64,000 nt of DNA from Terriglobia bacterium (GCA_963666975.2 CAXVYR010000004.1:704001-768000), one strand, 5' to 3'. Shown: positions 11,121-33,518, numbered from the stretch's first letter. Notes: generated by a model not told the origin, from the letters alone. Numbers and translations: made by a program.

Positions 11121-11230
11121 CGCCGGATAAGTAAACACTAGGCGACTTATCGTTACCTATCCGGGAAAACACCATCAATCCCCCTTCAAATCTGGTGGTT
11201 GCAGCATCAGCCCACCAGCGCAGACACCCA
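11121..11230 (+). repeat. Dispersed repeat family, copy 1 (CGCCGGATARGTAAACACTWKGCGAC core)
   Basis: Aligns over ~110 bp with 17182-17295; internal IR CCGGATA...TATCCGG. Confidence 0.7.
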
Positions 11231-11510
11231 ATTTATTTGCTCCCCCGTTGCGTGTACTCTAGCCCCAGTTTTGCCACCGATGGGAACGGCGGCGATTGGT
11301 GGTATAATGCTGCCAAAGGCAAGTGGCAGCGTTTTCAGGACCATTTGACAGGCTCTGGGACCGTTTCTGAGAAGAAACTTTGCTCGGAGTGTCAATTGGA
11401 GGCGAATGAGGGTATACGCTACGATGCTGGCAGGCCAAAAAGAAATTCCGGCTCAATAGATATGGGGGAGGCTTATATTGGGAGTTAATGTATCATTTCA
11501 AATCGAACAG

Positions 11511-12959
11511 GAGGGTGTCCCATACATAGTTGAAGGTTGAACGGCGGTTCGGCCCGAATCGAATAGAATCGGGCCAAGCCTAAATCCTATAGAAGGAGAA
11601 CCGCCGAATGAAGGGAAAATATCACGTTTTGGAACTGGGTTCCAAGGGAGCCGAAGAAACCATCCAGAAGTTTTGCCAAACCAACGGACAGATGCTGTTG
11701 CCGGTGGTGGATCTGATCACGGAGGCGCGTCTGGCGGTGGATGAGGTGATTGATCGGGCCGGGCGAGGTTTGATTGAAACGATTCTGAGCATGAGCGCAG
11801 AGCAAATCGCGGGGCCAAAGAGTCCCGGGAAGGCGAGCGGAGAGGTGCGCTGGCATGGCCGGCAATTGGGGAGGGTGAAACTGGCCGATCGCCAGCTGCG
11901 GGTGGAGCGGCCCCGGCTGCGCCGGAAGGGCGGAGGGGAAGAAGCGGTGCCGGCCTACGAAGCGCTGCGGAAAAGCGAGAAGACGGGCGAGGAGATGTTC
12001 GAGGCACTGTTGAAAGGGGTTTCGACGCGGAACTACCGCGAGGTGATCCCGGAGATGGCCAACAGCGCTGGGGTGTCGAAGTCTCAGGTGAGCCGGGAAG
12101 CGGCCGAGCAAGGAGCGCGGCGGCTGGAAGAACTGTTGGCGCGGCGCTGGGAGGAGGTCGAGATTCTGGTGATTTACCTGGACGGAATGCGGTTCGGCTC
12201 CCACCACGTCATCAGCGCCGTGGGCGTGGACAGCGAGGGCCGCAAGCATGTGCTGGGGATTCAACTGGGCGCGACCGAAAACGCCGCTGCGGTGAAAGAC
12301 CTTCTCACCCGCCTGCGCCAGCAAGGTTTGCGCACGGATCAGCGCTATCTGTTTGTGATCGACGGCGCCAAAGCGCTCCGCGCGGGGATCGAGGAAGTAT
12401 TCGGCAGCAATCAGCTGGTGCAGCGTTGCCGTACTCATAAGCTGCGCAACGTGGCTGAGCGGTTACCAAAGGGCGACAAAATGCTGGCGAATCAGGTGCG
12501 GTCGCTGATGCGCGCCGCCTGGCGATTGCCCCAAGCCGAGGAAGGCATCGTGCGCATAAAAAAGCTCGCTGGGATGATCGAGTGCGATCATCCGGCAGCA
12601 GCCGCCAGCTTGCGCGAAGGGTTGGAGGAGACCTTTACGATCAATCGAGCCGACGTTCCTCCCAGCCTCCACCGCTGCCTGGCAACCACGAACCTCATCG
12701 AGAGCCCGCAGTCGGGCGTGCGGAAAAAGACTGGCAATGTTTGCCGCTGGCGCGACGGCGAGATGACGTTGCGCTGGGTGGCAGGAGCGTTTCTGCTGAC
12801 CGAGAAGAATTTCCGGAAGATCATGGGTTATCACGATCTCTGGGCTTTGGCATCGATTCTCGGCCGAAGTCCAAACGCTGCTTCCTCTCACAAGGAGGAA
12901 GTGGCGTAATATGAACTCAACCCGCCGTCCCAACCTGCAACTGAGTTTGGGACACCTTC
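11511..12959 (+). mobile_element. IS256-family element copy 1 (1449 bp)
   Basis: IRs GAGGGTGTCCCA / TGGGACACCTTC, 8-bp TSD TCGAACAG. Confidence 0.95.
11608..12909 (+). CDS. IS256-family transposase
   Basis: GVSTR, YLDG, VIDGAKAL, QRCRTHKLRN, TTNLIES. Confidence 0.95.
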   Translation: MKGKYHVLELGSKGAEETIQKFCQTNGQMLLPVVDLITEARLAVDEVIDRAGRGLIETILSMSAEQIAGPKSPGKASGEVRWHGRQLGRVKLADRQLRVERPRLRRKGGGEEAVPAYEALRKSEKTGEEMFEALLKGVSTRNYREVIPEMANSAGVSKSQVSREAAEQGARRLEELLARRWEEVEILVIYLDGMRFGSHHVISAVGVDSEGRKHVLGIQLGATENAAAVKDLLTRLRQQGLRTDQRYLFVIDGAKALRAGIEEVFGSNQLVQRCRTHKLRNVAERLPKGDKMLANQVRSLMRAAWRLPQAEEGIVRIKKLAGMIECDHPAAAASLREGLEETFTINRADVPPSLHRCLATTNLIESPQSGVRKKTGNVCRWRDGEMTLRWVAGAFLLTEKNFRKIMGYHDLWALASILGRSPNAASSHKEEVA

Positions 12960-13780
12960 TCGAACAGGGTCTGGAGTTGACTTCTCTAAAGTGGCTTCTT
13001 GACCATCATCGGACCAAAGAAGAGGAACGTCGTCGTATGGTTGCTGACTTAAATCTTAAGCCAGGCGACACGATACTGGACTTAGGGTGTGGGCCGGGTC
13101 TATGGACACCATTGTTGGCGGAGAAGGTTAAGCCTAATGGGAGGGTTATTGGGATTGATTTCAACCCAGAGTTGATAGCCTATGCTACAGATAATCTGAA
13201 AAAGGAACCTCTCAAAGACATTATTGAGTTTCAATTATCGGATCTCCACGCTATCCCCTTTGCAGATAATACTTTTGATGCAGTCTTTTTCGGCAATTGT
13301 TTCGCTTATGTCACAAATCCCTTCAATGTGCTGGAAGAGCAGAAGCGGGTAACAAAGACAGGAGGAAGAGTTGTCGCTAAAGATTGGGATGGTGCACTCC
13401 TCATTTTTCATCCTATTGACCCTCAGCTGTCTTTAAGAATCCTGGCAGCGACAACTCGGGCGCTTGAAGAAAATCCCCCGGAACTACCTTTTGATAACCT
13501 CGTCGGGAGAAAGCTAAACGGGATTTTCTTACAGGCAGGATTCAAAGACGTATCCACTGTTACCTATGCTGTACAGAAGCTCTCACCTCTTAAACCATAC
13601 GCCAAACGCTACATTACAAATAATGCCGAGTGGTACGCTAAAATTGGAGCTCCGAATTTGTCGGAAGAAGACGTGCAGCGGTGGGGGGCACATTTTGACC
13701 CGAACTCTGATGAGTATATCCTTGACCTAGAAGAGTTCTATTACTGTATGGTGGAGATGATTACGGTGGGCACGGTCTAA
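12911..13780 (+). CDS. Class I SAM-dependent methyltransferase with IS-derived N-terminus
   Basis: ILDLGCGPG, IPFADNTFDAV; native TTG start at 11478 lies on the far side of IS256. Confidence 0.8.
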   Translation: MNSTRRPNLQLSLGHLLEQGLELTSLKWLLDHHRTKEEERRRMVADLNLKPGDTILDLGCGPGLWTPLLAEKVKPNGRVIGIDFNPELIAYATDNLKKEPLKDIIEFQLSDLHAIPFADNTFDAVFFGNCFAYVTNPFNVLEEQKRVTKTGGRVVAKDWDGALLIFHPIDPQLSLRILAATTRALEENPPELPFDNLVGRKLNGIFLQAGFKDVSTVTYAVQKLSPLKPYAKRYITNNAEWYAKIGAPNLSEEDVQRWGAHFDPNSDEYILDLEEFYYCMVEMITVGTV

Positions 13781-13789
13781 CGCGGTCCA

Positions 13790-14033
13790 ACAGGCCCTGG
13801 AGGCAGAGAACGCCTTGCAGCGCGTGGAGTTTGAGGCGCAACAGGAAGTCACAAGGGCCGAAGCCGAAGCCAAGTCGCTGGAACTTCAAAAAGAGCAGGT
13901 GACGGATCAGTTGATCGAGTTGCGGAGAATCGAGGTTCTACAAACGGCGATGGAGAAGTGGAACGGAGTGATGCCTTCCGTGGTCACCAGCGGCGGACCG
14001 ATTCCTATATTGAATGTATTAGGTGGGCGGTAA
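13790..14033 (+). pseudogene. C-terminal fragment of prohibitin/SPFH protein
   Basis: RAEAEAKSLELQ...IELRRIE...EKWNGVMP. Confidence 0.65.
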
Positions 14034-14655
14034 AGTAACGGCTGCTCCATCGGCAGCCCCTCATGGAGGAGCCCCGCACCAAAGTGCCTGATGTGCTGGC
14101 GGCTAATTGCCTCCCTTGTCCCCCCAAAGGACCTCGCTTGGTAGCTGCAAACAACTCTAGACAATCCCCAGGGCTGTGGCAGAATCCCTCCAATTACACT
14201 CCACAAGGAAAAAGCCATCACCTGGGATGGCGAAAACAGGAAGCCGGAGTTGCTGATTATCAGCTTAGAGACTCCGACTTTCTTATTTCCAGAAAACCTT
14301 GACCAACCTTTTTGCCTTCGGAAATCTGCCTTTCCTTCGCCGCCCACTTCAGCTGGGCAATCTGTTCCTTGATTTCGGGGGTTCTCTGTGAGGATTTGCC
14401 GGTGGTGCCAGCCCAGCCAGAAACACTTGGTTTCTGCAGCCTTCATTTATCCCAATTTCATCTCGCGTGGTGTTATGCTAAGGCGAATAGTTGAGAAAGT
14501 CGGTTTGCTTGAAACCATTCACAACAGTCGTTTGCTTCCAGACGAGTTGACTTCATCAAATGACAATAGCCGTTACGGGACAACCCGCTCTAGGGCCGGA
14601 TTACCTGACCGCTTCACAATAGCGGTGCGGCAACTTAAGAAGAAAAGAGAGAAAA

Positions 14656-14985
14656 ATGAAGAAATTGTTTGTCGGAAACATGAGTTTTGACACAACGGAA
14701 GGTGCCCTGCGGGCGATCTTTGAACCGTATGGAGAGATCACGAGCATCAATGTCATTACAGACCGCGACACAGGCCGGGCCCGAGGCTTCGCTTTCGTGG
14801 AATTGGCCGATGACGGTGAAGCGGCCAAGGCAATTACGGCACTGAATGGAAAAGAAGTGGACGGTCGCGCCTTGAACGTGAATGAAGCGCGTCCCAAGCC
14901 GGAGCGCAGTGGACCGCGGGACGGGGGAGGAGGAGGAGGCGGCCGCGGTCGTGGTGGCTACCAATCACGTGAACCGCGCTGGTAG
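14656..14985 (+). CDS. RRM RNA-binding protein with Gly/Arg-rich tail
   Basis: KLFVGNM (RNP2), RGFAFVE (RNP1), LNVNEARPK. Confidence 0.95.
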
Positions 14986-15112
14986 CAAGCAACGAAATTC
15001 CCTCAGGGGACGATTTACTTCGCCCCCAACACCCTCTCTGCTGGCTTATATCTTTACGGCAGTCAAAACATTCTTCCTGGCCCCGGTTGGGGGCGTAGTT
15101 GAGGAGAGTCAG

Positions 15113-16807
15113 TTGGGTATCGAAGACAAATATGATCAGGTGATGGAACTGATCTCCTTGGGAAAAGAAAAGGGTTATTTGCTCTACGACGAAGTCAAGG
15201 AGCTGTTGCCGGCCGACATCAGCAACTCCGCAGAGATAGAGGACATCCTGGCCACTTTTGGGACGGCGGGCATTGAAGTCATCGAGGAGAGCCCCCAGCT
15301 GCCTTCCGAAGAGAAGATGAATGCCAAGCTGGACGACGCGGGCGAGGAAGCGGAGTTGGACCTCAGCCCGGAATCTCTTGATAAAACCAACGACCCGGTG
15401 CGTATGTATTTGCGCGAGATGGGAACCGTGCCGCTGCTGACTCGCGATGAAGAAGTAGAGATAGCAAAACGCATTGAGCGGGGACAAAACAACGTCCTGA
15501 AGGCGATATCCCGGTCCCCCATCATCGTCCAAGAGCTTCTTCTCTTGGGGAAAGACCTTCGCTCCTCCGCCAGGACAATCAAAGCATTGGTGGTCTTCAA
15601 TGACGATGAGTTAACCGAGGACCGCGTCCAGGAGAAGCTGGAGGAGGTCTGCGAAACCGTTGAAGAGATCAGCAAGCTTTCCAAAAAGGTGCAGCAGTTG
15701 AAGCTTCGCCTGGAGAACATTCCCCGGACAAAGAAACCGAAGGAATTTCGAAGGGCGCGCTTCCGGCTGGCGCGCCTCCGGATCCAAATATCCCAGATGA
15801 TCCGGGGGATCGTGTTCAAGCACACGGAACGCAAGCGCCTGATCGAAAAGGTCTACCGCACCGTGTATTCGCTTCAATCGCTGGAGCGGGAGCGGAAGCG
15901 GATTGAGACGCGGCTGAATTCGGCCACGGGTGACACGGCTAAGGAGTTGCGCAAAAGCCTGAATCAGACCAAGAGCCAGATTTCCGCCATTGAGGAGGAA
16001 TCCGGAGCCAAGTCTGCCGAGTTGCGCCGGACTCTTCAAATCCTCGCGGAAGGGGAGCGGGACGCCGAGATTGCCAAGCAGGAGATGACAGAGGCCAATT
16101 TACGGCTGGTAGTTTCCATTGCCAAAAAGTATACCAACCGGGGTTTGCAGTTCCTGGACCTCATCCAGGAAGGCAATATCGGATTGATGAAGGCGGTGGA
16201 CAAGTTCGAATACCGCCGGGGTTACAAGTTTTCCACCTACGCCACGTGGTGGATTCGCCAGGCCATTACCCGGGCGATTGCCGACCAAGCGCGCACCATC
16301 CGCATCCCGGTGCACATGATTGAAACCATCAACAAGCTGGTCCGCACCTCGCGGCAACTGGTCCAGGAGTATGGCCGGGAGCCGACCAGCGAGGAGATCG
16401 GCAAACAGATGGACATTCCTGTGGACAAGGTGCGGAAGGCCCGTAAGATTGCCCAGGAAACCATTTCGCTGGAGACGCCCATTGGGGAGGAGGAAGATGC
16501 TCACTTGGGCGACTTCATTGAGGATCAGGGAGCTGTCTCGCCGGCAGAAGCGGTCATCAACGTCAACCTGAAAGAACAGACCGCCGGGGCGCTCAAAACT
16601 TTGACTCCGCGCGAAGAGAAAGTTATCAAAATGCGCTTCGGGCTGGAGGATGGCAGCGAGCGCACCCTGGAAGAGGTGGGGCAGAGCTTCGCTGTGACAC
16701 GGGAACGCATCCGGCAGATTGAGGCCAAGGCGTTGCGCAAACTGCGCCATCCCTCTCGGAGCCGCAAGCTCAAGGCTTTCCTCGAAATCAACGCCTCCCG
16801 CGACTGA
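15113..16807 (+). CDS. rpoD: RNA polymerase sigma factor RpoD (group 1 sigma-70)
   Basis: Region 1.1 [62 protein letters not shown]; TTG start after GAGGAG. Confidence 0.92.
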
Positions 16808-16994
16808 ATCACCGTCATCGCCCCCGTGCCTTCCCGGAGAATCGGGGTTGTTTTCCAAGAACGCAACGGCCGGGCTGCCGCACTTTGCCCTGCAATCCTC
16901 GAAACCAGCGTTGCAAAATAAGAATTGCAATTAAAGCAAACGGGCCATAATAGGGCAGCAGAGACTTGGTTCCAGATGGCAGTCCATACCGTAA

Positions 16995-17087
16995 ACTCTA
17001 ACTTATCAACTGGACCGATTTAGGGGGGACAGGTCAGCTGACCTGACCGGCTCTTTTTGTACCACCTGGAGTGAGAGAGAGAATCCC
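16995..17087. mobile_element. Two abutting orphan IS3-family ends
   Basis: ...TGGACCGATTTAGGGGGGACAGGTCA-GC-TGACCTGACCGG...; match ends at 36216, 47776 and 404. Confidence 0.6.
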
Positions 17088-17139
17088 ACGGCCGATTAGC
17101 CCCCGTCCTCAGGAACACCCTCACCGGACCAACCCTCCA

Positions 17140-17612
17140 CGATTACTCCCGAGTAACGGCGAAGGATAGAGTAATCCTGCCCGCCGGATAGGTAAACACT
17201 TTGCGACTACACAGGACCTATCCGGGGAAAAGCGGCCAAAATCCATTCAAACCAAGTGCTTGCAGCAGCCTTTCCCTCGCCGAAACCTAATTGACTTATC
17301 GTCCTGTTATCGAAAACGCCTCGGGCAATCGTCTCCCCCGTTCCGCAATTCTTTGCACCGAGGCGCTCCCGATCAACGCTAACTACTAGTCAGGGGTTAT
17401 TTCCCACAACGCCGTTTATGTCCAACTTCCGAGTAGGCGACCACTCAGCCAGCATGGATCGTCGGTAAACATAAGGCGACTAGGGAGGATCAATTTCCTA
17501 GAACGCCTATTCTGGGCGATTATGAAGGTTCAGCCACTTCTCGGAGCCGACTTAACGACCAAGTAGCGGCAAGCCGGCGGACCATACATTCCGAGTTGGC
17601 GACCACTCGGAA
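17140..17612. repeat. Cluster of dispersed repeat-family sites including a dif-like 11-6-11 site
   Basis: Core at 17182, ATTTCCCACAA-CGCCGT-TTATGTCCAAC at 17399, CCGAGTWGGCGACCACTC at 17429 and 17591. Confidence 0.6.
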
Positions 17613-17834
17613 AGAATCACGCCCTTCACATTTGCGGTCTTGACCGGTCGCGCTTCCCAGATCACCGTTTGTGACCAACTTCCGTGTGAGCAGCTACAGA
17701 GGAGTAATCTAGAATTTTCTCCTCGACTGCACTCGGAGCTCGGCGGTAGGCAGAGCAAGTCCTTGTCCACAATTGATTTACCTTCCCACCTCGTGTAAAC
17801 TCTCACCAGAATTTCAAATCAGACAGGTGTAAAC

Positions 17835-20348
17835 GTGGGGGTTTCCTCGGGTACGCATCTTGGCGCTTACGAGATCCTCAGTCTATTAGGTTCGGGTGGC
17901 ATGGGTCAGGTTTGGCGAGCCAGACACTTGATGCTTGACCGCCAGGCTGCCATCAAGCTGATCCGCCCTGAGTCCTTTGGGCCTGGGGTAGGTGAGCAAG
18001 CTAATACCCTACTGCGTCGCTTCGAGCGCGAAGCAAAGGCGACCTCTGCCTTGCGGTCGCCCCACACCATCCAGGTATATGACTTTGGCACCACCGAGGA
18101 CGGCACTTTTTACTACGCCATGGAACTGCTCGAGGGGCGCGATCTCAACACCCTCGTGGAGCAGCATGGACCCCTTTCAGCCGAGCGGGTGATTTATATC
18201 CTGCGTCAGGTCTGCGAATCTCTTGCCGAGGCCCACCGCAACGAGTTCATTCATCGAGATATCAAACCAGCCAACATCTTTCTCACCGAGGTTGGCTTGA
18301 AGTACGACTTCGTCAAGGTGCTCGACTTCGGGCTCGTCCAGCACACACCGGGATCGGATTGGAAGGGTTCGCGTTTGACCGTCGAAGGTGTCGTCGCCGG
18401 TTCACCCGCCTTCATGGCTCCGGAAATAATCAGAGGCAGCTCCACGATTGACGAGAGAGTTGACATCTACTCGTTAGGGTGCGTCGCCTACTGGGTTCTC
18501 ACCGGGCAACTCGTTTTTGAAGGGGAGACACCGATGCAGATCATGGCGGCCCATCTCGAGCAGTCGCCTGCACCGCCTTCAACCCAATCCGAATTGGAAA
18601 TCCCAACCGCGCTTGACCAGATCGTCATGGCCTGCCTGGAAAAAGACCCCGCCAGGCGGCCGCAGAGCGTGGAGACGCTGTCTCGCCAACTTGCCGAGTG
18701 CTCAGGTAAGGAACCCTGGACCGAGAGGCGCGCTGAGGATTGGTGACTGGTCCATCATCCACCGAAGGCGCCGGTTGAACGGGCCAGTAGCGAGGGCACG
18801 ACGCTTGGAAGGTACATGCCCCCTAAGCCTAGTGCTGTAGTGGAAGAGGGAGCAGAACCGCGTGCACTTTCTCGCCGGCGGGTGTTGGCGGGAGCAATGG
18901 CAATCCTCCTGGCGCTGCTTGTCGGGATGAATCTGGGGAGTTGGCGGGAGTGGCTGCTTGGAGACGCTGATCGGGTCCGGATTGAATCGCTGGCGGTGCT
19001 GCCGTTAGAGAATCTCTCTGACGATCCAGAACAGGAGTATTTCGCAGACGGGATGACCGAGGCTTTGATCGCTGACTTGGCCGGCATCAGAGCATTGAAG
19101 GTGATCTCGCGGACGTCAGTAATGCGCTACAAAGAGAGGGAAAAGTCTCTGCCCGAGATCGCGCGGGAATTGGGGGTGGATGCGGTGGTCGTGGGCTCGG
19201 TAATGCGGGCAGGCGACCGGGTGCGGATCTCCGCGCAGCTCATCGACGCGGCAACCGATGAGCACCTCTGGGCAGAAAGCTACGAGCGGAACATGCGGGA
19301 CGTGCTGACGTTGCAGCGGGAGGTGGCGCGGGCCATTGCCCGCGAAGTCCGCATTCTTGTGACGTCGGTGGAAGGAGCGCGCCTCGCCAGGGCCCGTCGC
19401 GTCAACCCGGAGGCCTACGAGCTTTACCTGAGAGGCCGCTTCCACGTAAACAAGTACACGGAGGAGGGCTACAGACGGGCTTTGGAATATTTTCAACAGT
19501 CGATTGAAAAAGATCCTGACTACGGGGCTGCCCACGCAGGATCGGCCCAGTCGCACGGTCTGTTGGCTGCGTTCTATGGCCTCCAGCGTGAGTCGTGGCC
19601 AAAAGCAGAATCAGCGGTCCTGAAAGCACTGGAGCTTGATGAATCTCTTGCCGAATCTCATGTCTCGCTGGCACTGATTCGGCAGTACCGCGATTGGGAC
19701 TGGGCCGCCGCCGAAAGAGAATACAGACGCGCCATTGAGCTGAACCCCGGCTATGTGACCGCACACCACGAGTACGCGGCCTTTCTGACAGCGATGGGCA
19801 GGTCGGAGGAAGCTGTCGAAGAGATCCAGCTAGCTCGGGAACTCGATCCACTCTCCGTCGTCGTGAATCAGGATCTGGCATGGATCTACTATCGAGCGCG
19901 GGATTATAACCGAGCGATCGACCAGCTTCGCAAGACGCTGGACTTGGACCGAAATTTCGCGGATGCCCACCGCAAGCTGGGATGGGTACTTGCGGCAACG
20001 GGAAAGTTTGAAGAAGCCGTCGCTGAGATGCAGCAGGCAGCCACCCTTTCCTCAGACCCTATGATGTTGGCATCCCTGGGGCGTGTCTATGCGGTGTCAG
20101 GTAAACACAAGGAGGCGCTCACGATCCTTGGAGAACTCGAAGAGCGACCGGAGCGCAGTTATCTCTCGCCCTACATTGCACTAATCTATGTTGGTTTGGG
20201 GGAAACAGATCAGGCAATTGAATGGCTGGAGCAGGCCTACGCGGAGCACCACGGTCAACTAATCTACCTCAAAGACCCACGTTGGGATCCCATGCGCTCC
20301 GACCCTCGCTTCCAGGACTTGCTCCGCCGCATGAATCTCCCCGGATAG
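17835..20348 (+). pseudogene. Ser/Thr kinase - TM - TolB-like - TPR protein split by an in-frame TGA at 18744
   Basis: GSGGMG, HRDIKPAN, DFG, APE; ESLAVLPLENLS...YFADGMTE and TPRs follow in the same frame. Confidence 0.85.
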
Positions 20349-20492
20349 GCTACTCCTACTTCATGAGGAAAACGTCACTTCAATCACCGCATTAGAACGG
20401 CTTCCATCTAAAGGCTGAGAAGCCACGTCTCTTGCCGCCAGTTTGCCATCAAAGCAACGGTAGTTCACCGATGGCGTGAGGCTAGGGTCATC

Positions 20493-23400
20493 TTAGAAAT
20501 AGAATTTGAGTCCCAGTTGGATCACCCGTGCTGGCCTTTCGGGATCAAGCACCTGGGTAGTCTCTCCGAACTGCCCGCTGTTGACGTCGTTGTTGGGGTC
20601 GTCAAACTGCGGGGTATTCCATGCGTTGAGGAACTCGAACCGAAGCTCAAACCGCTGCTGCTCGTCAATGTGGAACTCTTTGAACAGGGAAAGGTCCGAG
20701 TTGTGATGCCACCAGGAGCTAAGACTGCTGCTACCACAGTTGCCAAAGGTGAACACGGCAGGTTGAGCGAACGCAGGGCTGCCGGGAAACAATTGCGCAA
20801 ACCGCTCGACTGTCCTTGGGCCCGACGGATCGCCGAAACAGTCTGCTCTGGAAACGTGGCCTCCACCGGTCTGACTGGCATCGCTGGCGAAGATGGCGAT
20901 GGGGACTCCGCTCGTGGAACTGACAATCCAGTTGAACTGCCAGTTGCCCAACAGCCTGCCCGCAAGCCCCTTGTTCAACAATGGCTGCCCATGCCCAAAG
21001 GGTAACTCCCACACGCCGTTTGCCACGACGCGGTGCCGTTGGTCGAAGACCAGCCGGCCGTAGTCGGCGGCAAGATCGTGAGCGTTCTGTGGCCGGTCCA
21101 GGACAGTGCCGGGGCCGCCTGACAGGTTGTCGCCTACATTCCCCAATGCCTTTCCCCAGGTATAAGCGACGTTGAACGTGTATCCCCGCGAGAACCGCTT
21201 GCGCACGTTCACCTGAAGGGAATGGTAATTGCTGTTGCCGTCGCTCGCCGTAAAATTGCTGATGTCGGCAAAGTCCGGGAGGGGACGCACCGCCGGGCCG
21301 ACTCCAGGGGTCAGGATGATTCCCTGGTTGATGTTCCGCTGCTTGCGCAATTTGTGGTTTACCTGTCCCACGTAGGAGACATCCACCGCCAGGTTTGGGA
21401 AAACCTGGATCTCGGGCCCAAAGCTCCACTGCTGAGAATAGGGAGTGCGCGCGTTCATGTCGATGCCGCGAAGTTCCGCTTCGGCTGGGATAGCTCGGTC
21501 GGGACGGCGGGAAACTCGTCTCGAAGCAAAAAATCCCTATTCGGAACCATGGGGCCGATTCCCTGCGGGAAACTGGCGTCAATCACCTGGGGCGGGTTGA
21601 GCGGCAAAGTATCCCGGCTCCCCGCACGATCTTGCGCCTGGAAATAGACGCCGAATCCGCCGCGCAAGACGAACCGCTCCCTGGGGCTCCATGCGAAACC
21701 AACGCGAGGAGCAATGTTATCGCGGTCCGGGTGAACCAGAGATCGGGCAAACACACTTCTCCCCGACGGACCCAGGGTCAGACACGGGAAGGCCGCCAGG
21801 CAGGCCGGGGGTGTAAATTCTCCTTCAAAGGCGGTGACCACCCCTCCCCGGCCCCCGTTGGCGGCAGGGTCAAAGTTCGAGATCAGCCGGTCGCGCTCGA
21901 TCTTCGGCGTGAAGTACTCGTACCGGAGCCCGTAGCTGAGGGTGAAGGCGGGAGTCACTCGCCAGATGTCCTGGCCGTAGAACATCCATCCGTCGGTATA
22001 GGTGTGTGCCACCAACGGTGTAGTCACCTCGATCCTTTCCACCAAGCCCAGCAACAAGTTGGCGACTCCGTCACCGGTCCAAAAAACGGGAATGATGTAG
22101 CGGCCGTTAGGAGCCTTGATATCAAAGAAGGTGTTCAGGGCACGCTTGAATTCAAAACCAAACTTCATTTGGTGGGCGCCGCGGAAAATAGAAAGGTTGT
22201 CGAGGGCCTGCCACACCTGGGAGCGTGCGAATTGGGGACGCCATTCGGCGGTTCCCAGCAGACTGTATCCGGACACGCGAATCGGAGGCAGCCCGAAGGC
22301 TAAGGTGCCTGGCAAGCCCGTCAGTCCGAACTGCGGACCGGCGTCTCCCTTCTCGGCCAGCGGTTCCGAAGTGGAACGGATGAGGTTGAAACCGAAACGA
22401 GCCTCGTTCAGGATGGACGGGCTGAAAGTGTGAAGCCAGGAGAGCGACGCCAGTTGCCCCCGGACTTCGCTCTCGGCGCTGAAGCCTCCGGTGGCAATCG
22501 GATCGGGAAATGGTCCGCGCTCAACGATGGTGTCGACGTCGAGGAACGAATAGCTGCCGTAGAGATTGTCTCTGTCGGTAAGTCGATGATCGATGCGAAC
22601 GTCAAAGTGGCCCGCGTCAAGAGGAATTTCGGGTGCTGAAGTAAAACCGAACGTGCCCTGGTTTGGATCCGGGTATAGTTGCACCAGTGCCATGCCGGCA
22701 GGGTCGCCGCAGGGCCGTCCGTCTGTCCGTAAGGAGGCCAGGTTGATTACGTCATTCACCTCGTCCACACAACCCGCAAGCTCCGGAATCACATCGGATG
22801 GATCCCTCAGGTCCCGGACGCCTGCAAAGATCCCATTTTTCATTGCAGACGTCGGCACCGTACCGCTGGCGGTCCTGCCTTCTTTCGCATTGGTCAACTG
22901 ATAGTCCGCAAAAAAGAAGGTACGATCGCGCAGGATCGGCCCACCCAAAGCAAAGCCCGCCTGGTTGCGTTTTTGCTCGGGGGATTCCAGTGCGGCGCGG
23001 TTGACAAAGAAATCCGTTGCGTTCCAGTTGTCGTTGCGATGAAACCACCAACCGGAGCCGTGAAATGTGTTGGTGCCGGATTTGATTTCCGCGTTGACCA
23101 CACCTCCCACGGCCCAGCCAAAGTCGGCGGTATAAGTGCGCGTCTGGATTCGGAATTCGCGTAGCGCATCTGGCGGCGGAGAAACTACCTGGGGGCTTCG
23201 CTCCTGCGCGTTTTGTGTGTAGGTGTTATTATCCACTCCGTTCAATACAAAGTAGTTCTGAAGAGAGAAGTTGCCATTTACATTGATGCGGCCTTCGCGC
23301 GGATTGTCCCGAACTCCTGGAGCCGGCAGAACACCGGGGCTGAGCAGCATCAAGTCAACATAGCGCCGACCGTCGAGCGGCAAGTCGAGAATTCTGTTGT

Positions 23401-23812
23401 TCTCAACCAAGGAAGCCACATCCGCAGATCCGGGTTGGATCAATGGTTGTGCTGCCGTTACCTCAAGCACTTCGTGCACGGGACCTGGTTGCATCACGAA
23501 ATCGACTGTTAGGCGGTCGTTCACATGCAAAACAAGACCAGTGCGAATGGAGGTCTGAAATCCGGATGCTTCAGCACGAATCTGGTATGGGCCGGCTCGC
23601 AAATTGGGTGCAACATACACCCCAACCTCGTTCGTCATTACCTCAGTCGCAACCCGCAACTCCCCATGAGTTATCGTTATCTTAGCTCCCGGAATAACGG
23701 CTTCGGTTGAATCCGACACAATGCCCGCAATCACTCCGGCGTTGGTCTGGGCATTCGATACGGGTGCCACAATCAAGCCCAAACATACCGCTATTGCCCA
23801 CCAATACAACAT
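20493..23812 (-). pseudogene. Oar-like TonB-dependent receptor, frameshift near 21488
   Basis: Signal peptide, LPLDGRRY, KSGTN, APRVGFAW in ORF1; C-terminal RVIQLGLKFYF in a second frame. Confidence 0.85.
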
Positions 23813-24361
23813 TGATTTCCCTCAAGAGGCCTCAACTGGTATTTTCCAGCTACGATTTGCCAGGATGGACTGATGCAACCTGATCAATTCGCTCACACAT
23901 CGTGGATGAGGATTTCCGATTTGGGTTTCCTCACACCGCCAGTGTAGTTGTGAAGCCTGTCTGCCGCAACTGCCCAGCCCGATATTTTGTGCCAGTGACA
24001 GTGAGAGTCTGCATCACAACCTGGGACTGTGAAACTGGATTCCAGACAGGGCTGTGACTTCCCGATGCCGATGGCTGATAGCCAAGTGCCTGCCACTTAG
24101 CTGATGAGTCGGTTTACTGGAGAAGTGATCGCCCTCCCTGGAACTCAGTCCAGGAGGCAAGTCCCAGATTATTCCCCATACGTCGCCTACTGTTTATCGG
24201 CGAATCCGCAGGTCAATCCGAAGTTCTGCCCGAATGACGGCGTACTCGGAAACAATTCGCTGATTCCGGTGCAGTGGGATCGACGCTCTCGTCAGAATCC
24301 TGCAAAGCGGTCCCCAAGTCCGGTTCTGGGAAGAGTCGATCTCGCACAGCAACGGCGATAG

Positions 24362-24440
24362 ATCCTCTGTAACGCCGTACTGGTGAGTAATCCTGCCCGC
24401 CGGATAGGTCGCCACTAGGCGACTAGGCGGGACCTATCTC
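24362..24440 (+). repeat. Dispersed repeat family copy
   Basis: GAGTAATCCTGCCCGCCGGATAGGT identical to 17169-17193, then CGCCACTAGGCGACTAG. Confidence 0.7.
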
Positions 24441-24473
24441 CGCGAACGTTGTCCGAAGAAGTTGGGCCGGATG

Positions 24474-24604
24474 GACCACTTGTCCGGATTGCCGACTATC
24501 CCTCCATTGAGGCTGGCAGCTACACGCGGTGCTGGGCTATAGACCCCCGGCGACCACTTGTCCGGATTGCCGACTATCCCTCCGATGCTGGGCTATAGAC
24601 CCCC
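24474..24604 (+). repeat. Imperfect tandem duplication
   Basis: GACCACTTGTCCGGATTGCCGACTATCCCTCC twice and TGCTGGGCTATAGACCCCC twice. Confidence 0.85.
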
Positions 24605-24799
24605 GGGCCTGTAATCCCTTCCTTCCCCCAAAACCAGTTTCACAACCCCGGGCTGTAATGTAAACTCTTTCAGTCACGCTGGCACAAAAGATCGGTCTGG
24701 TCACCCCTGGTTGACGGGCCAGTGGCTGGGTCGCCGAGCATGGCCGCTGTACTCGATTGCCTGACAGACCGTTACCCGGAGAACGGAGCCTCCTCAGAT

Positions 24800-27700
24800 A
24801 TGACCCGACCGCGCACGACCTACGCGCTGGACCTGGACACGTCGTCCTTCGTCGTCGAGGAGTACAACTGGGCGCCCGCGTTCTCGAACTTCCTCCCCGG
24901 TATCGCCGGGGCGTGGGGGATCCCGCTGTGGGCGTATTACGTCAACCGCGGACAAGCGATGACCTCCGTGGGCGTTCGCGACAAAGACGGGCAGATCCTC
25001 GAGTTCTACTCGCTGAATAAGGCCGTGATGCGTATCGAGCGCGAGGGCTTCCGGACGTTCGTTCGGATCGACGGCGGGCCCGTGTACGAGCCCTTCCGCA
25101 GAACCGAGCGCAACGGTATCTCGCAGACGATGATCATCTCCTCGGCGGAACTGGTCCTGCGTGAGCGGAACGATCCCCTGGGCCTCGAGATCGAAGTCGT
25201 GTACTTCACGCTGCCGAACCTGCCCGTGGCGGCCATGGCGCGGCAGGTGCGCCTGCGCAACCTCGCGGCCCAACGCCGGCGCGTCGAGTGGCTCGACGGC
25301 GCCGCGCGGATCATCCCCTTCGGCGTGGGGCTCGAGCGCAGCAAGGCAATTCCGCGTCATATCGAAGCGATGATGGGCGTGTGGAACGTTCACGGCGTCC
25401 CCCTGTTCCGACTCAAGCAGAAGCCCGAGGATCTTGCGCAGGTGGGCAGCCTCTCGGGGGGGCATTTCTACCTTGCGGCCGGTACCCGGCTCGGCCAGGG
25501 GCTCGTCGTCGACCCGGATGCAGTGTTTGGCGACGAGATCAGCCGCGACCACCCCTGGCGGTTCGAACGCGAGGGTGCGCCTGGCGTCCTCGCCGCCACG
25601 GCGTACCACGACAACAAGACGCCCGCAGCGTTTGTCGTTCGAGCGGACCAGCTGGCCGCCGGCGCCGAGGTCACGCAGAGTTCCGTGTTGGGCCATGTCC
25701 CGCGTGACGCGGACCTACTACCGCTTTTGTCGGCTATGCGGAGCCAGGACTTTTTCCATCGCAAGCGCTCCGAGAATGCCCGAGAGGTTGCCGAGATCGC
25801 GGGTCGTTGCTTCACTGTCTCGTCATCGCCCACGTTCGACGCCTACGCGCAGCAGAACTTCCTTGACAACGTCGTCCGTGGCGGCATGCCCAGGGTGTTT
25901 CAGACAGCGCGCGGTCCTAGCGCCTGTTACCTGTTCGGCCGCCGGCATGGTGGCTTGGAGCGCGACTACCACCACTTCGTCGTCGAACCCACCTATCTGT
26001 CGCAGGGAAATGGGTTCTACCGGGACGTGCTCCAGAACCGGCGGAGCGACACGTTCTTCTTCCCGGAAGTCGAAGACGCCAACCTGGTCACGTTTCTCAA
26101 CCTGTCGCAGTTGGATGGTTATAACCCGCTCGGTGTCGACGAGGTGACCTACCGCGTGGCGGACCAAGCGGCCCTTGGGGGATGGCTGCGGCGCAACGTC
26201 TCCTCTGCACCGGTCCGCGCCGACCTGCGCCGCTGGATGCAGAAGTCGTTCAGCCCGGGCCAGCTCGTGATGTGGCTCGAGGCAGGCACGGGCCGTCCGG
26301 TGCGCGATCGTGAGCGGGTCACCCGGGAGGTTCTGGCGTTCTGCGCTCAGAACGAGGTCGGCAGCCTGCACGAGGGCTTCTGGTCGGACCACTGGCACTA
26401 CAACTTCGACCTGCTGGACGCGATCCTGATGGTCTTTCCCGATCGCCTCGAGGACCTGCTGGTCGGGCGCCGCGTCTACACGTTCTTCGACGATCCGGAT
26501 GTCGTTCTGCCGCGGTCGGAGAAGACGGTGGCGGTCGGGGCGAAGATTCGTTGCTACGGCACCGTGATCCGAGACGGTGAAAAGGAGCGCTATATCCGGG
26601 CCCGGAAACACGATCCCTACACAGTTCGGACGCGGTACGGTCGCGGGACGATCTACAGGACGACGCTGCTCGTTAAATTGCTGTGCCTCGTCACGAACCG
26701 GCTCGGCACGCTCGATCCGGCCGGCACCGGCATCGAGATGGAGGCCGGCAAGCCGGGGTGGAACGATGCGCTCAACGGTCTGCCGGGCCTCTTCGGGTCC
26801 GGGCTCTCGGAGCTGCTCGAGCTGCGACGGGCGCTCCGGTTCATGCGAGACGCGCTCGACCGGATCGGCCGTCCAGCGTCCGAGACGTTACCCGTTTACG
26901 AGGAGCTCGCCGGGTTCGTGCGCACCCTGCGGCGAATCATTCGGCGCCGCCTGCGGTCACGCGCCGAGGGCGCGGCCTTTCGCTACTGGGACTCGGCCAA
27001 CACTGTCAAGGAACGCTACCGAGACCAAACTCGGCTCGGTGTCTCGGGTCTCACGGTCGACTTGTCGTTCCGCGAAATCCGCGGCTTCCTTGCGGACGCC
27101 GGGACGTTGCTCGACGCCACATTCCGACGCCCCACCCGCGCACAGGTGATGTCGCCCGGCGGCGTTCCGTACACCTACTTCCTCAACGAGATCGTCAAAC
27201 ATCGGCCGCTGTCTCGCCGGAACCATCAGGGATTCCCGCTGGTCAAGGCCGTGGGCTTCCGGCAGCGTCCGGTGAGGCTGTTCCTGGAAGGGGCGGTCCA
27301 CTGGATGAAGGACCGCCCCGAGGAAGCTGCAGACATCTACCGCGCCGTGCGCCGCTCAGGGGTCTTCGACCGCAAGCTCGCAATGTACAAAACGTCTGAG
27401 GACATGACGGGAGAGACGACCGAGCTGGGGCGTTCCGTCGGTGCTTATCCGCGCGGTTGGATCGAGAACGAGTCGATCTACCTGCACATGCACTATAAAT
27501 ATCTGCTCGAGGTGCTTCGGGCCGGGTTGTATGCGGAGTTCTGGAAGGACGCTCGGACCGGGCTGATCCCCTTCCTCGATCCAGCGGTCTACGGGCGGAG
27601 TACGCTTGAGGGGGCATCGTTCGTGGTTTCGAGCGCCTATCCCGACGAGCGGTTTCACGGCCGCGCCTTCCAACCGCGCCTGTCGGGCATGACCACGGAG

Positions 27701-28096
27701 TTCATCAGCATGTGGCTTCTGGCACTGGTCGGCTCACAGCCCTTCCGCGTGGCCACGAACGGAAACCTGACGCTGACCCTCGAGCCGCGGCTACCCGATT
27801 GGCTGTTCACCGAGCGCCAGACGAAGCGTCGGTACCACGACCCGCTGGATGGCTGGGGCGAGGTGAGCGTCCCGAAGGACGGTCTGGCGTTCAAGTTGCT
27901 GGGCCGCGTCCTTGTGGTGTATCGAAACCCGCGGCGTCGACCGACGTGGGGAGCCCGCGGGGTGCAGCCGATCGCGTACCGGCTCGAGTACCGCAGCGGA
28001 CAGGTTGTCGAGCTCGGCTGCGCCACGGTCGCTGGTGCGCACGCCGAGGCTGTGCGCGAAGGTGCGGTCCGCCGCATCGACGTCACGCTTCGGTAG
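24800..28096 (+). CDS. Large glycoside phosphorylase, GH161/GH94-like (beta-glucan phosphorylase)
   Basis: FLPGIAGAWGIPLWAYYVNRGQ, ERDY, SQGNGFYRDV, MEAGKPGWNDALNGLPGLFGSG, ENESIYLHM; ~1100 aa. Confidence 0.7.
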   Translation: MTRPRTTYALDLDTSSFVVEEYNWAPAFSNFLPGIAGAWGIPLWAYYVNRGQAMTSVGVRDKDGQILEFYSLNKAVMRIEREGFRTFVRIDGGPVYEPFRRTERNGISQTMIISSAELVLRERNDPLGLEIEVVYFTLPNLPVAAMARQVRLRNLAAQRRRVEWLDGAARIIPFGVGLERSKAIPRHIEAMMGVWNVHGVPLFRLKQKPEDLAQVGSLSGGHFYLAAGTRLGQGLVVDPDAVFGDEISRDHPWRFEREGAPGVLAATAYHDNKTPAAFVVRADQLAAGAEVTQSSVLGHVPRDADLLPLLSAMRSQDFFHRKRSENAREVAEIAGRCFTVSSSPTFDAYAQQNFLDNVVRGGMPRVFQTARGPSACYLFGRRHGGLERDYHHFVVEPTYLSQGNGFYRDVLQNRRSDTFFFPEVEDANLVTFLNLSQLDGYNPLGVDEVTYRVADQAALGGWLRRNVSSAPVRADLRRWMQKSFSPGQLVMWLEAGTGRPVRDRERVTREVLAFCAQNEVGSLHEGFWSDHWHYNFDLLDAILMVFPDRLEDLLVGRRVYTFFDDPDVVLPRSEKTVAVGAKIRCYGTVIRDGEKERYIRARKHDPYTVRTRYGRGTIYRTTLLVKLLCLVTNRLGTLDPAGTGIEMEAGKPGWNDALNGLPGLFGSGLSELLELRRALRFMRDALDRIGRPASETLPVYEELAGFVRTLRRIIRRRLRSRAEGAAFRYWDSANTVKERYRDQTRLGVSGLTVDLSFREIRGFLADAGTLLDATFRRPTRAQVMSPGGVPYTYFLNEIVKHRPLSRRNHQGFPLVKAVGFRQRPVRLFLEGAVHWMKDRPEEAADIYRAVRRSGVFDRKLAMYKTSEDMTGETTELGRSVGAYPRGWIENESIYLHMHYKYLLEVLRAGLYAEFWKDARTGLIPFLDPAVYGRSTLEGASFVVSSAYPDERFHGRAFQPRLSGMTTEFISMWLLALVGSQPFRVATNGNLTLTLEPRLPDWLFTERQTKRRYHDPLDGWGEVSVPKDGLAFKLLGRVLVVYRNPRRRPTWGARGVQPIAYRLEYRSGQVVELGCATVAGAHAEAVREGAVRRIDVTLR

Positions 28097-28159
28097 GCGC
28101 TCACAATCCCGCCGCCGGCGGCCAGGTGGCAGTGGGATCGCCGTAGGTCGTCGCAAACA

Positions 28160-28222
28160 TGGCGAGGGAGAAGGATTTGACCCCCCCGACACGGTTTGCC
28201 GTCTAACGGTTTTCAAAACCGC
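28160..28222 (-). tRNA. Degenerate 3' part of tRNA-Ser(TGA), att-like relic
   Basis: GCGGT-TTTGAAA-ACCGT anticodon arm, long variable arm, mutated T-loop, ends CGCCA; no D arm or 5' stem. Confidence 0.6.
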
Positions 28223-28310
28223 GACATATCAGGCGGAGTCAAGAACCGCTGACTGTCGAGAAGCCATACACGAGATTTGACGAAGCCTTTATGAAGGCCC
28301 GCTGGCACGC

Positions 28311-28436
28311 GATATTTCCTCGGACGGACGACGCTTCCTGGCCGTCCAGCCCGTTGACCAGGAACAGCCTGCAACCAAAATCAACGTCGTCCTCAACTGG
28401 TTCGAGGAACTGAAAGAGAAAGTGCCAGTGCAGTAA
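28311..28436 (+). pseudogene. C-terminal tail of a kinase/PD40 beta-propeller protein
   Basis: DISSDGRRFL...INVVLNWFEELKEKVP*. Confidence 0.65.
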
Positions 28437-28568
28437 CCCACCCACAGACCCCCGAGAGTAGCCCCCTCCCCAGCTTCCCGAAACTGCCTCACAATCGATT
28501 CGTTCCCGCTTCCGAGGCAGCCCCCAGCAGAACAACCCTCAGTGGACCTGTCCGTGGCGATTCCCCAT

Positions 28569-28600
28569 GTGTAACGGCGAAGTGTTTACCTATTCGGCGC
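28569..28600 (-). repeat. Dispersed repeat family copy
   Basis: Reverse complement CGCCGAATAGGTAAACACTTCGCCGTTAC. Confidence 0.65.
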
Positions 28601-28776
28601 CAGTGGCCGGCCTTGCGGAATCTGGCTCTCCGAAAAGGTAGATTGTCGCCTTACCCCTACCCCCTGTATCAAAGGGTCCCAAACCGTGGCTTGCCAACCC
28701 ATTGAAAAATCAAGAGAGCCGTCTGCGGTTTTGTGCTGTATTAAACCATGTGGTTTAATGGCGAATGGAATTTCTC

Positions 28777-28812
28777 AAGAAAAAGAGCCAACGCGGAGCT
28801 GGCTCTTTATTT
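28777..28812 (-). terminator. Putative intrinsic terminator
   Basis: AAAGAGCCA...TGGCTCTTT hairpin with T tract downstream of the DUF3891 gene. Confidence 0.5.
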
Positions 28813-28876
28813 TTGGGTGTGTTTTTTTCTGCCTTTTGGCGTGATTTATTTGTTTTCAAAGAACGGTGTCGGAGTC

Positions 28877-29785: not shown

Positions 29786-29814
29786 AGTGTCCTCCGTTGC
29801 TTATTCAGAGTTAA

Positions 29815-31475: not shown

Positions 31476-31589
31476 TTAATAATATCTCTCGGCATTTTCA
31501 TGATTGGATTGGCTTGGAAGGCATGAACGCAGTGACGAGTGATAAAGTGATAAGAGGAGACAGAAGGCAGAGGTCAGGAGTCAGAATGA

Positions 31590-31752
31590 AAAGCAGATCC
31601 CCCTCGGCAATCCCTCGGCTTCGCTCGGGACATGGCTCGGGGCAGGCTTTCGCGGAGTTTACCCTGAGCAACGCCGAAGGGCTCAGGATGACCGCCCGCA
31701 GGGCGGTCAATCCGAGCCGCGACCTCTTCGGCTTCGCTCAGGGCAGGCTGTG
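31590..31752. repeat. REP-like palindromic repeat cluster
   Basis: CTTCGCTC(A/G)GG..., CCCTGAGC-AACGCCGAAGG-GCTCAGG hairpins. Confidence 0.5.
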
Positions 31753-31801
31753 AGGGAGCGGTCAAAAATGATGAGAAAAGTGAGGAGCCAAGAGTTAGAA
31801 T

Positions 31802-33313
31802 TGTGCCCCGTCAGGGCTTGTTGGACAGGTAGAGGGTAATAGTTAAGGTGATGTTTTTGGCTCATCGTAGAGACTGAAAGGAACGAAGATGAGACAAAAA
31901 CAAGACGACAGGGGGGCGGTCGAGAAGGCCGTCCGGGAGATCAAACGCAGGACGCGGCGCAGGTTCAGCCCGGAAGACAAAATCCGCATTGTATTGCAGG
32001 GACTTCGCGGCGAGGACAGCATCGCGGAGCTGTGCCGCCGCGAGGGGCTGCACCAGAACCAGTATTACCGCTGGAGCAAGGAGTTTCTGGAGGCTGGCCG
32101 CAAGCGGCTGGCGGGCGACATAGACCGTGAGGCAACCAGTGGCGAAGTCAAGACTCTGCGGGAGCAGGCCGTACAGCTGAAAGAGGCCCTGGCCGAGGCT
32201 ATGCTGGAAAATCGCCTGCTAAAAAAAAGCGTGATCGGGGATGGGGAGGAACATACATGAGATACCCTGCCTCGGAGAAGCTGGAGATCATCTGCACGGT
32301 GGAGCAATCTGCCCTGGGGGTGCGCCGGACGCTGCAGCAGGTTGGCATTCCCAGATCGACGTTTTACAACTGGTACGACCGCTATGTGTCGGAAGGCTTT
32401 GATGGGCTGGAAGACAAAAAACCCGATCCTGGCCCTGTCTGGAACAAGGTGCCGGAGGAGATAACTCAGCAGTTGGTGACGTTAGCCCTGGCCGAGCCCG
32501 ATCTGTCGTCACGCGAGCTGGCGGTGCGTTTTACCGAGGAAAGGCGGTATTACCTTTCTGAATCGACGGTTTACCGCGTCCTGAAAAGCCATGACCTGAT
32601 TACCGCGCCAGCCTTTATTGTCCTGAAAGCGGCGGAACGGTTCGCCAACCCGACCACGGCGGTCAACCAGCTCTGGCAGACCGACTTCACCTACCTGAAA
32701 GTCATCGGTTGGGGCTGGTTCTACCTGTCCACGGTGCTGGACGACTTCTCGCGCTATATCATCGCCTGGCGGCTGTGCAAAACCATGAGCGCAAGTGACG
32801 TCTCGGCCACGTTGCGGGATGCTTTGCAAGCCACCGGCCTCGACCGCGTGGGCGCCCGGCACAGACCTCGCCTCCTGAGCGACAACGGGCCGTGCTACGT
32901 CTCTTCCGAACTGCAATCATGGCTGGCAGAAAACAGCGTGCCGCATACTCGCGGCAAGCCCTATCACCCCATGACGCAGGGCAAGATCGAACGCTGGCAC
33001 CGAACTCTGAAAGACCGCATCCTGCTCAACAACTATTACCTGCCAGAAGAGCTGGAGCGGCAGATCGATGCCTTCGTCAACCACTACAACACCAACCGAT
33101 ACCATGAAAGCCTGAACAACCTGACACCGTATGACGTTTTTACAGGCCAAGGCAGTGCCATCCTGCAAAAACGGGATCGCATCAAAGAGAAAACTATGAT
33201 CTTAAGAAAACGGTTGCACTTCAAAAGAAGGGCAGCCTAACATCAACCCAGAGGAGCCTGAACGCCACCTTATCTTTTTATGCTCTGTGTCCAACATTAT
33301 CTGACGACGTACA
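31802..33313 (+). mobile_element. IS3-family element with IS481-like TGT..ACA ends, copy 1 (1512 bp)
   Basis: TGTGCCCCGTCAG...CTGACGACGTACA; same as 61408-62919. Confidence 0.92.
31889..33240 (+). CDS. IS3-family transposase orfA (31889-32260) / orfB (32257-33240), probable -1 frameshift
   Basis: HTH orfA, A8 slippery run at 32221, [23 protein letters not shown]. Confidence 0.92.
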
Positions 33314-33354
33314 CTCCCGAGCAACACCGTAGTGTAGAACGAAATCTCTCAACT

Positions 33355-33518
33355 CCCGAGTGGTCGCCTACTCGGAAACAATAGTGCGGCCCGCCGCCTT
33401 AGTCGTCTGCGGTCCAGAAACGGCGTTATGGGAAGTTACTCCTGCCTTGTCGCCAAGTGTAGACCTATCCGGTGGGCGCGGATTACCCGCCACTACGCCG
33501 TTACACAGGAGTAATCGT
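33355..33518 (-). repeat. Dispersed repeat family copy (composite)
   Basis: Reverse complement matches 17140-17210 and 17393-17446. Confidence 0.7.

Follow-up and report, generated by a model that had tools for sequence, protein, structure and literature searches.

The window analysed here, a 64,000-nucleotide stretch of the 4.23-Mb genome of a Terriglobia bacterium (G000 C4:704001-768000), contains several copies of a family of composite, modular and palindromic intergenic repeats, set in an acidobacterial genome crowded with insertion sequences (ISs). A first-pass annotation had taken these sequences for ~28-bp sites of a cassette-shuffling system resembling dif/pdif modules. Our results bear out the part of that proposal concerning the sites themselves, which are real, intergenic, located at the borders of gene blocks and have exchanged parts, but not the dif layout, the single recombinase or the need of the repeat for building the mosaic. 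We hold instead, with moderate confidence, that the copies are non-coding, non-autonomous interspersed repeats of the kind represented by repetitive extragenic palindromic (REP) sequences, bacterial interspersed mosaic elements (BIMEs) and MITEs (miniature inverted-repeat transposable elements). The family is apparently undescribed. A literature search on Acidobacteria, MITEs and intergenic DNA returned no paper that, by title or abstract, deals with it. The additional files of PMC3733652 list acidobacterial terminal inverted repeat (TIR) sequences that could overlap with the present family.

The basic unit is a dyad, in which two ~40-nt halves, inverted relative to each other, flank a spacer of 8 nt (TGCCCGCC, the same in 8 of the 14 copies that were aligned). 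Each half is made of an 8-nt box, a conserved 22-nt loop and a complementary box, in the layout S1-L1-S2, spacer, S3-L2-S4. The S boxes read GGATAGGT, GGATTACT, GATAGATC or a complement of any of the three, loop L1 contains ..GAGTAACGGCGTAGTG.., and loop L2 (AAACACTAGGCGACTACACAGG) is roughly its reverse complement. Palindromic units forming inverted doublets around a short spacer, the arrangement of REPs and of REP doublets forming hairpins (REPINs), are seen in the alignment, in the folds and in the inverted matches. The dyad may be followed by optional modules, namely M3 and M4 (~215 nt together), a tail (..TTTCCCAGAACGCCGTTTCTGGAC) and a hairpin H (CCGAGT-AGGCGACC-ACTCGG), with which the unit ranges from ~70 to 350 nt. 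The core recognized by the first-pass annotation (GGATAGGTAAACACTNNGCGAC) corresponds to the end of the spacer plus S3 and L2, that is, to the right half, and homology among copies spans 100-350 nt instead of ~28 bp. The satellite motifs that had been listed beside the core are present in the sequence; both they and the core exist, but as parts of one longer modular element and not as separate motifs. Copies break recurrently at the spacer (consensus 82-94) and at the end of the core hairpin (127-142). By our own reading of the alignment, all combinations of box types at S1, S2 and S4 are present among 13 full copies; since the box types differ at three or more positions, the copies must have exchanged parts, and this exchange is not confined to one crossover point.

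The core is not due to chance, as its 30-nt consensus with up to 9 mismatches has 32 matches in G000 against 3, 7, 5, 0 and 1 for five shuffled patterns. The sequence CCGAGTWGGCGACCACTC occurs four times in the whole genome, three of them inside the window. The core sites reported at 11121, 17182, 24398, 28571(-) and 33447(-), together with a degenerate one at 17455, are found at these coordinates and strands (Table 1). The one at 28571(-) is not a minus-strand core; it is the left half of a dyad that the profile places on the + strand at 28525-28597. The listed set is real but incomplete, with diverged units at 17459-17520, ~17680-17760 and 24146-24261(-) having been overlooked.

Table 1. Repeat copies, related fragments and adjoining genes, with positions counted from the first letter of the window.
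Feature	Position	Strand	Structure	Match or identity
Copy A	11085..11251	+	degenerate left half, spacer TGCTCGCC, core 11125-11154, M3 extension	profile match 11117-11251, consensus 83-216
Second rpoD copy	15063..16813	+		93.7% identical to C3:1301038-1302788
Copy B	17105..17458	+	full long form, ~350 nt	profile consensus 7-362, E 7.5e-110
Copy B2	17459..17520	+	second, diverged core with tail directly after B; the degenerate copy at 17455	9 of 30 core positions mismatched
Second H hairpin	17578..17610	+	CCGAGT-TGGCGACC-ACTCGG	inverted match
Family fragment	17680..17817	+	core end and third tail type (AGTAATCTAG..CTCGAC)	17694-17817 matches C4:686259-686386 (80%) and C3:319016-319117
Ser/Thr kinase block	17770..18833	+		93% identical to C3:901070-902133
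Diverged H-core-tail unit	24146..24261	-	divergent from copy C	83% to C4:686349-686465
Copy C	24334..24453	+	left half, spacer, core 24402-24431 (variant GGTCGCCAC); ends after core hairpin	profile consensus 15-142
GH161-like beta-glucan phosphorylase gene	24722..28096	+	between copies C and D	E 3.4e-185 to PDB 9h8v_A
Copy D	28525..28597	+	left half only; core 28571-28599(-) is the same half read backwards	profile consensus 9-84
Copy E	33348..33560	-	short form: left half, spacer, core 33441-33470, tail, H 33358-33375	profile consensus 2-220
Terminase small-subunit gene	33585..34151	-	duplicated with the repeat start at C3:1176k	phrog_57, E 9.7e-32

A profile built from 11 copies and run over G000 gave 32 matches, which were merged into 26 loci, and the five window loci used as search seeds gave 32 clusters. 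Placement was judged on a crude map of the open reading frames (ORFs) of the genome, on which none of 28 clusters lies inside an ORF of at least 200 aa and four overlap a smaller one (126-155 aa) or its edge. When loci were placed at random in 1000 trials, a mean of 4.3 and a maximum of 13 had a neighbour within 15 kb, compared with 21 of the 26 real loci; likewise, 11 of the 26 have a member of one of four IS families within 2 kb (random mean 3.6, maximum 10). The neighbouring genes are accessory, including Amidohydro_3 paralogues, TonB-type receptors, DUF5916 genes, kinases and hydrolases. Counting copies of 1 kb or more, the genome holds 57 IS256-like, 33 IS3-like and 13 IS4-like elements, most of which are 99-100% alike, whereas the repeat copies are 70-95% alike and the best identity between loci is 92-95%, which indicates that the repeats are older than the IS bursts.

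Thirty related genomes were compared (31 with G000). At E<=0.001 the long form has four matches in G002, of the same genus (83% complete), four in G006, of the same family (88% complete), 18 in G009, of another genus, and a weak one in G014, of the same class, which makes five of 31 genomes with G000 included; no long-form match was found at that threshold in G001, although it belongs to the same genus. Copies in G009 and G002 have flanks without orthology to the repeat loci of G000, which points to turnover. Searched in one genome per species for ~185,000 species, the exact 22-letter core pattern returned seven records, all of them, by title, metagenome-assembled genomes (MAGs) of Acidobacteriota, with one from Vicinamibacterales and one from Acidobacteriaceae among them; the flanks vary from record to record, and the modules of the family are partly visible. 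Of 201 genomes sampled evenly across the phylum, four contain the core with no more than two mismatches (14 matches in G000, one with 1 mismatch in G019, and one each with 2 mismatches in G077 and G207). Since the reversed-pattern control gave seven matches, the two-mismatch singletons are noise. We conclude that the phylum carries the family in a patchy and not a universal manner.

The reading of the copies as REP/BIME/MITE-like repeats draws on their age, their intergenic location, the exchange of parts among them, their accumulation in IS-rich accessory regions, and their use as an IS target in the sister genus represented by G009. There, an IS110-family element is found at one exact position of the core, within L2, between ..GGTAAACAC and ACTTYGCGAC... 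Seven distinct left junctions (..GGTAAACAC|GCATTATAAAAGG) and four right ones (..TTTTATAGG|ACTTYGCGAC) were identified, and three left/right pairs enclose a 1.5-1.6-kb element whose protein contains the DEDD_Tnp_IS110 (PF01548) and Transposase_20 (PF02371) domains. Insertion at the same point of many copies, with intact IS ends, was found in G009 only; this genome has 12 IS110-type genes and G000 none. The pattern matches the reported targeting of REPs by IS110-family elements (PMC1525189, PMC11187229, PMC11208160). The 3' non-coding region of the G009 element contains ATAAACAC, on the strand of the left flank, and GTCGCAA/CGCAAAG, complementary to the right flank; flank matches of at least eight letters to the non-coding region also appeared in 90 of 500 shuffles, which is not significant, so these guide-sequence matches are only suggestive. 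An IS481-like end shared with G009 was considered as a further link and rejected, being a case of adjacency with no shared flank. If the copies are REP/BIME/MITE-like repeats, past spread by an enzyme supplied in trans, together with local duplication, would have distributed them, and they would now be decaying while acting mainly as landing pads for mobile DNA and as homology patches that join gene blocks. Such a role would explain why copies are found at switches of gene origin.

Several observations weigh against this interpretation. No mobilising enzyme was found: the three matches to Y1 transposases in G000 are weak and all lie more than 70 kb from any copy, no profile match surrounds the one G000 Y1 gene examined for a flanking repeat of the RAYT type, the profile has no match at 12 Y1-transposase loci from 12 related genomes, and the presence of Y1 transposases in relatives does not track the repeat. 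Nor did we find a target-site duplication, a parent element or a pair of filled and empty sites, the last owing to the fragmented state of G002 and to flanks that lack orthology. The number of loci (26) is low for a REP family, and their strong clustering is unlike classical REPs. The exact core in seven MAGs of several acidobacterial lineages hints that it is constrained by a conserved binding partner. Finally, the dyad, whose inverted arms of 11-13 bp enclose a conserved spacer of 8 bp, also has the layout of a tyrosine-recombinase core site. In PMC3733652, REP hairpins are described as carrying a conserved GTAG tag at one end, and acidobacterial Y1 genes with long terminal repeats are reported. 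In the present family, GTAG occurs inside loops (GGCGTAGTG, the reverse complement of CACTAGGCGACTAC, and GAGTAGGCGAC of hairpin H), not at the foot of a tight stem. The copies are not the ends of the ISs in the window, since the profile has no matches within its four IS families or at their termini; that the sites might be the ends of a known IS or MITE was an outcome that the first-pass annotation had named as fatal to its own proposal.

The recombinase-like layout of the dyad deserves consideration in its own right. Its centre could be a lox/pdif-like site at which a tyrosine recombinase acting in trans binds the inverted boxes, exchanges strands within TGCCCGCC and moves or inverts gene blocks, an explanation that we consider unlikely. 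In favour of it, the spacer is asymmetric as well as well conserved and is enclosed by the inverted arms ..(T)TTACCTATCC and GGATAGGTAAA(C).., and half copies break there, left-only copies ending at consensus 82-85 and right-only copies starting at 83-94. In addition, loci form arrays with spacings of 2-12 kb, a phosphorylase gene with no DNA match in G001, G002 or G003 is enclosed by copy C and half-copy D, and about five of the 28 Phage_integrase matches of G000 lie within 5 kb of a copy where about two would be expected (a rough estimate with no formal test). Yet the recombinases near copies belong to different, unrelated families, and the Xer-like gene flanked by copies (C3:313984-314934), a candidate for the single co-occurring recombinase that had been predicted, was not found at E<=1e-30 in the repeat-bearing G002, G006 and G009; at this threshold it matches only G005 and G026, both of which lack the repeat. 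Several right-only copies retain a degenerate left flank (CCACTGGCYGA) and thus look decayed, not recombined, and boxes have been reassorted between S1 and S2 too, away from the spacer.

The specific likeness to dif/pdif fails on geometry. In dif/pdif sites, two ~11-bp arms form an imperfect dyad around a 6-8-bp centre, on which a cognate Xer recombinase acts, and the orientation of the sites alternates in arrays. According to our own count, when the 11-nt arms proposed around a variable GT-NNNN-AC centre are compared in inverted orientation (CGCCGGATAGG on the left with CTAGGCGACTA reverse-complemented), only 2 of 11 positions agree, the real dyad lying 10-20 nt to the left of the claimed core, around TGCCCGCC. 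Orientations follow + + + (+/-) - along the window and + + + + + - - + in the C3:308-369k cluster, showing no pdif-type alternation in either. Integron attC sites have RYYYAAC/GTTRRRY boxes and form a one-orientation array beside an integrase; here the orientations are mixed, and the two recombinases beside copies that were scanned for integron integrase reached 57 bits at best, against a cut-off of 265. A fuller proposal would make the dyad the core of a recombination system that is specific to Acidobacteriota and not yet described, with inverted GGATAGGTAAAC arms, the conserved TGCCCGCC spacer, conserved 22-nt accessory flanks and a trans-acting recombinase that captures, inverts and exchanges accessory blocks of one to three genes, thereby assembling arrays such as that of the window; it appears to us improbable. 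A recombination site at the dyad would, if real, amount to a new cassette system.

The unit might also be a cis-regulatory element or a small RNA, that is, a promoter/operator or 5' leader of accessory hydrolase, receptor and kinase genes whose loops are bound by protein. The loops (GAGTAACGGCG, GGTAAACACTNNGCGAC) are indeed far better conserved than the boxes, and in our own reading of the crude ORF map about nine of the 16 loci that could be judged are followed, 85-440 nt downstream, by the start of an ORF in the same orientation, among these ORFs three Amidohydro_3 genes, the phosphorylase and the kinase; the same arrangement is seen at four of eight loci in distant MAGs. About seven of the 16 loci, by contrast, face the 3' end of a convergent gene, many copies are fragmentary, positions are not conserved between genera, and the core with up to two mismatches occurs in only four of the 201 sampled genomes, close to the level of its reversed-pattern control (seven matches). 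Folded singly, several copies form long hairpins (z -2.3 to -3.9 in six of 10), but RNAalifold on 14 copies yielded only eight pairs (-3.37 kcal/mol) with an unfavourable covariation term (+0.21), the small number of shared pairs resulting from the reassortment of boxes between copies. No Rfam family covers the copies, either at gathering score or at E<=1, and neither a curated model nor a conserved fold with covariation defines them as a structured RNA family. With this balance, a regulatory or RNA function for the unit seems quite unlikely. The only Rfam matches in the window, considered as a known RNA family for the copies and discarded, are a weak sX4 (28099-28261) and an unrelated Acido-Lenti-1 RNA motif (40835-40880; RF01687, 52 bits, gathering score 37), the latter adjoining tandem Amidohydro_3 genes.

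Both genes for a terminase small subunit in the genome are followed by a copy after 45 nt, which raises the possibility that copies are the ends, or the packaging or attachment (att) sites, of a phage satellite or larger mobile element, left behind by repeated integration and decay. The neighbours at C3:1176-1182k, a primase-like ORF, a 572-aa ORF and a tyrosine integrase, resemble such a satellite. Also in favour is a neighbouring DUF5916 gene (G000 C3:1143829-1146681), which is 87% identical across genera to G009 C7:20280-23017 and has no DNA match in same-genus G001 and G002; its distribution suggests that it may have moved between lineages sharing the repeat. Terminase genes, on the other hand, occur at only two of the 26 loci, both belonging to one duplicated block, no matching repeat is found on the other side of the integrase, and most neighbours are ordinary metabolic genes, all of which makes a satellite origin very improbable. 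The cluster itself (C3:1176495-1181959) consists of the tyrosine integrase, a 240-aa ORF, the primase-like 177-aa ORF, the 572-aa ORF, which has a weak match to AAA_16 below the Pfam cut-off, and the terminase small subunit, and is followed by a long repeat copy. As an att site of this cluster the repeat was rejected, there being no direct repeat beside the integrase (best match 13 nt, E 0.19).

The mosaic structure of the window is real, and all five copies lie in intergenic DNA between gene blocks of different history, in agreement with the first-pass annotation. Its gene calls were right for rpoD, the kinase, the TonB-type receptor, the phosphorylase, DUF3891, the IS and the terminase small subunit. 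ARAGORN finds no tRNA or tRNA relic in the window, contrary to the relic proposed at copy D. Near 11121, the ORF at 9540-10628 encodes an rve-type transposase, and a C-terminal gene fragment ending at ~11062 looks by eye like a luciferase-like monooxygenase, a name that no tool confirmed. The second rpoD copy has its counterpart at a locus syntenic with G002 (C3:1301038-1302788); the window gene (14882-16807) appears to be chimeric, with similarity to the native gene beginning only at 15063, and the preceding segment at 14418-15033 is also multi-copy (87% to C4:2285735-2286344). From 17907 to 23970 the window is collinear with a G002 contig at 95%, and collinearity ends at the outer left edge of a 733-nt inverted-repeat segment that holds copy C. 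In this interval, the TonB-type receptor (20493-23812) is represented by two ORFs (785 and 321 aa) covering successive parts of one Pfam model, which looks like a frameshift or stop in the gene. Identity to G002 in the DUF3891 block is 97-99%. No repeat borders the loci from which the rpoD and kinase blocks were duplicated, and since many of the window's block borders are simply IS ends that lack the repeat, the latter is not needed to build the mosaic.

Individual copies show how the modules are combined and what surrounds them. Copy A lies 3' of the truncated gene fragment and 5' of an IS256-like element starting at 11511. In copy B the left half (GATTACTCC..GAGTAACGGCG..GAGTAATCC) is followed by the spacer TGCCCGCC and by a core at 17186-17215 that ACCTATCCGG closes; after these come M3/M4, then the tail (..CACAACGCCGTTTATG) and, at 17429-17446, hairpin H. 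Two other loci, C3:1176147-1176428 and C3:356792-357043, match this copy with 87-92% identity over 250-280 nt. Copy C is located 270 nt upstream of the phosphorylase gene. A different shared module (28598-28756) comes after copy D, and 28496-28756 as a whole is 83% identical to C2:3071-3334. Copy E starts 45 nt past the terminase small-subunit stop and ends 35 nt from an IS3-like element (31802-33313); its start falls in a region (33488-34275) 89% identical to C3:1176398-1177186.

Other repeats share these intergenic regions. Just before copy B, at 16995-17086, there are two inverted ~42-nt repeats (ACTTATCAACTGGACCGATTTAGGGGGGACAGGTCA and its partner) that are far commoner than the present family, dozens of matches having been obtained in G001, G002, G003 and G009; the sequence immediately outside an IS3-like copy (36216-36251) is similar to one arm. 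The segment that contains copy C (23971-24703) is bordered by ~70-nt inverted repeats, the right arm being a repeat also present in G001, G002 and G003. A local tandem duplication follows copy C (24470-24605), and contigs from four public runs of four studies lack 24553-24605 and have five other letters in its place. One contig of run X1 carries copy C in place (18823-24552 and 24606-24743), and contigs of runs X2, X7 and X9 end at 24414-24419, inside the core of copy C; the repeats account for the breaks of short-read assemblies of this lineage at this place. No RNA run was listed among the public runs. Joints in public-run contigs that skip long parts have sides shorter than 30 nt and lie at repeats, and were not used.

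If the copies are indeed REP/BIME/MITE-like, they would constitute an undescribed repeat family with an unusual architecture and no RAYT, in a phylum whose genome dynamics are little studied, and the G009 element would be a natural and easily testable case of an IS110-family member (with its bridge or seek RNA) that specialises in a repeat of its host. Where gene turnover is rapid, the repeats serve as markers of the region. With the dif/pdif sites of XerC/XerD they have in common short conserved sequences at gene-module borders of a mosaic region, and differ in a core with no dyad symmetry, homology extending far past 28 bp, the lack of alternation and the lack of a co-distributed Xer-like partner. 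Integron attC sites and their IS1111-attC association offer another parallel, being ~100-nt imperfect palindromes between accessory genes that are targeted by an IS110/IS1111-type element, although the present repeats lack the outer RYYYAAC/GTTRRRY boxes, are not uniformly oriented and have no integron integrase that we could find. The BOX elements of Streptococcus pneumoniae and the Correia elements of Neisseria are modular MITE-like repeats. Like these, the present family is non-coding, modular and intergenic, 100-350 nt long, with variable modules and old, diverged copies; unlike them, it yielded here neither a parent transposon nor terminal inverted repeats accompanied by target-site duplication. 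From REPs and REPINs the family departs in having only 26 strongly clustered loci, no repeat-flanked RAYT/TIRYT gene found, modules that reach 350 nt, and halves of ~40 nt with conserved 22-nt loops where REPs are tight hairpins of 20-35 nt. It resembles REPs, BIMEs and REPINs, as described in PMC1525189, PMC11187229 and PMC3733652, in that its members are intergenic palindromes, occur singly or as inverted doublets, build mosaic arrays and serve as targets for IS110-family elements.

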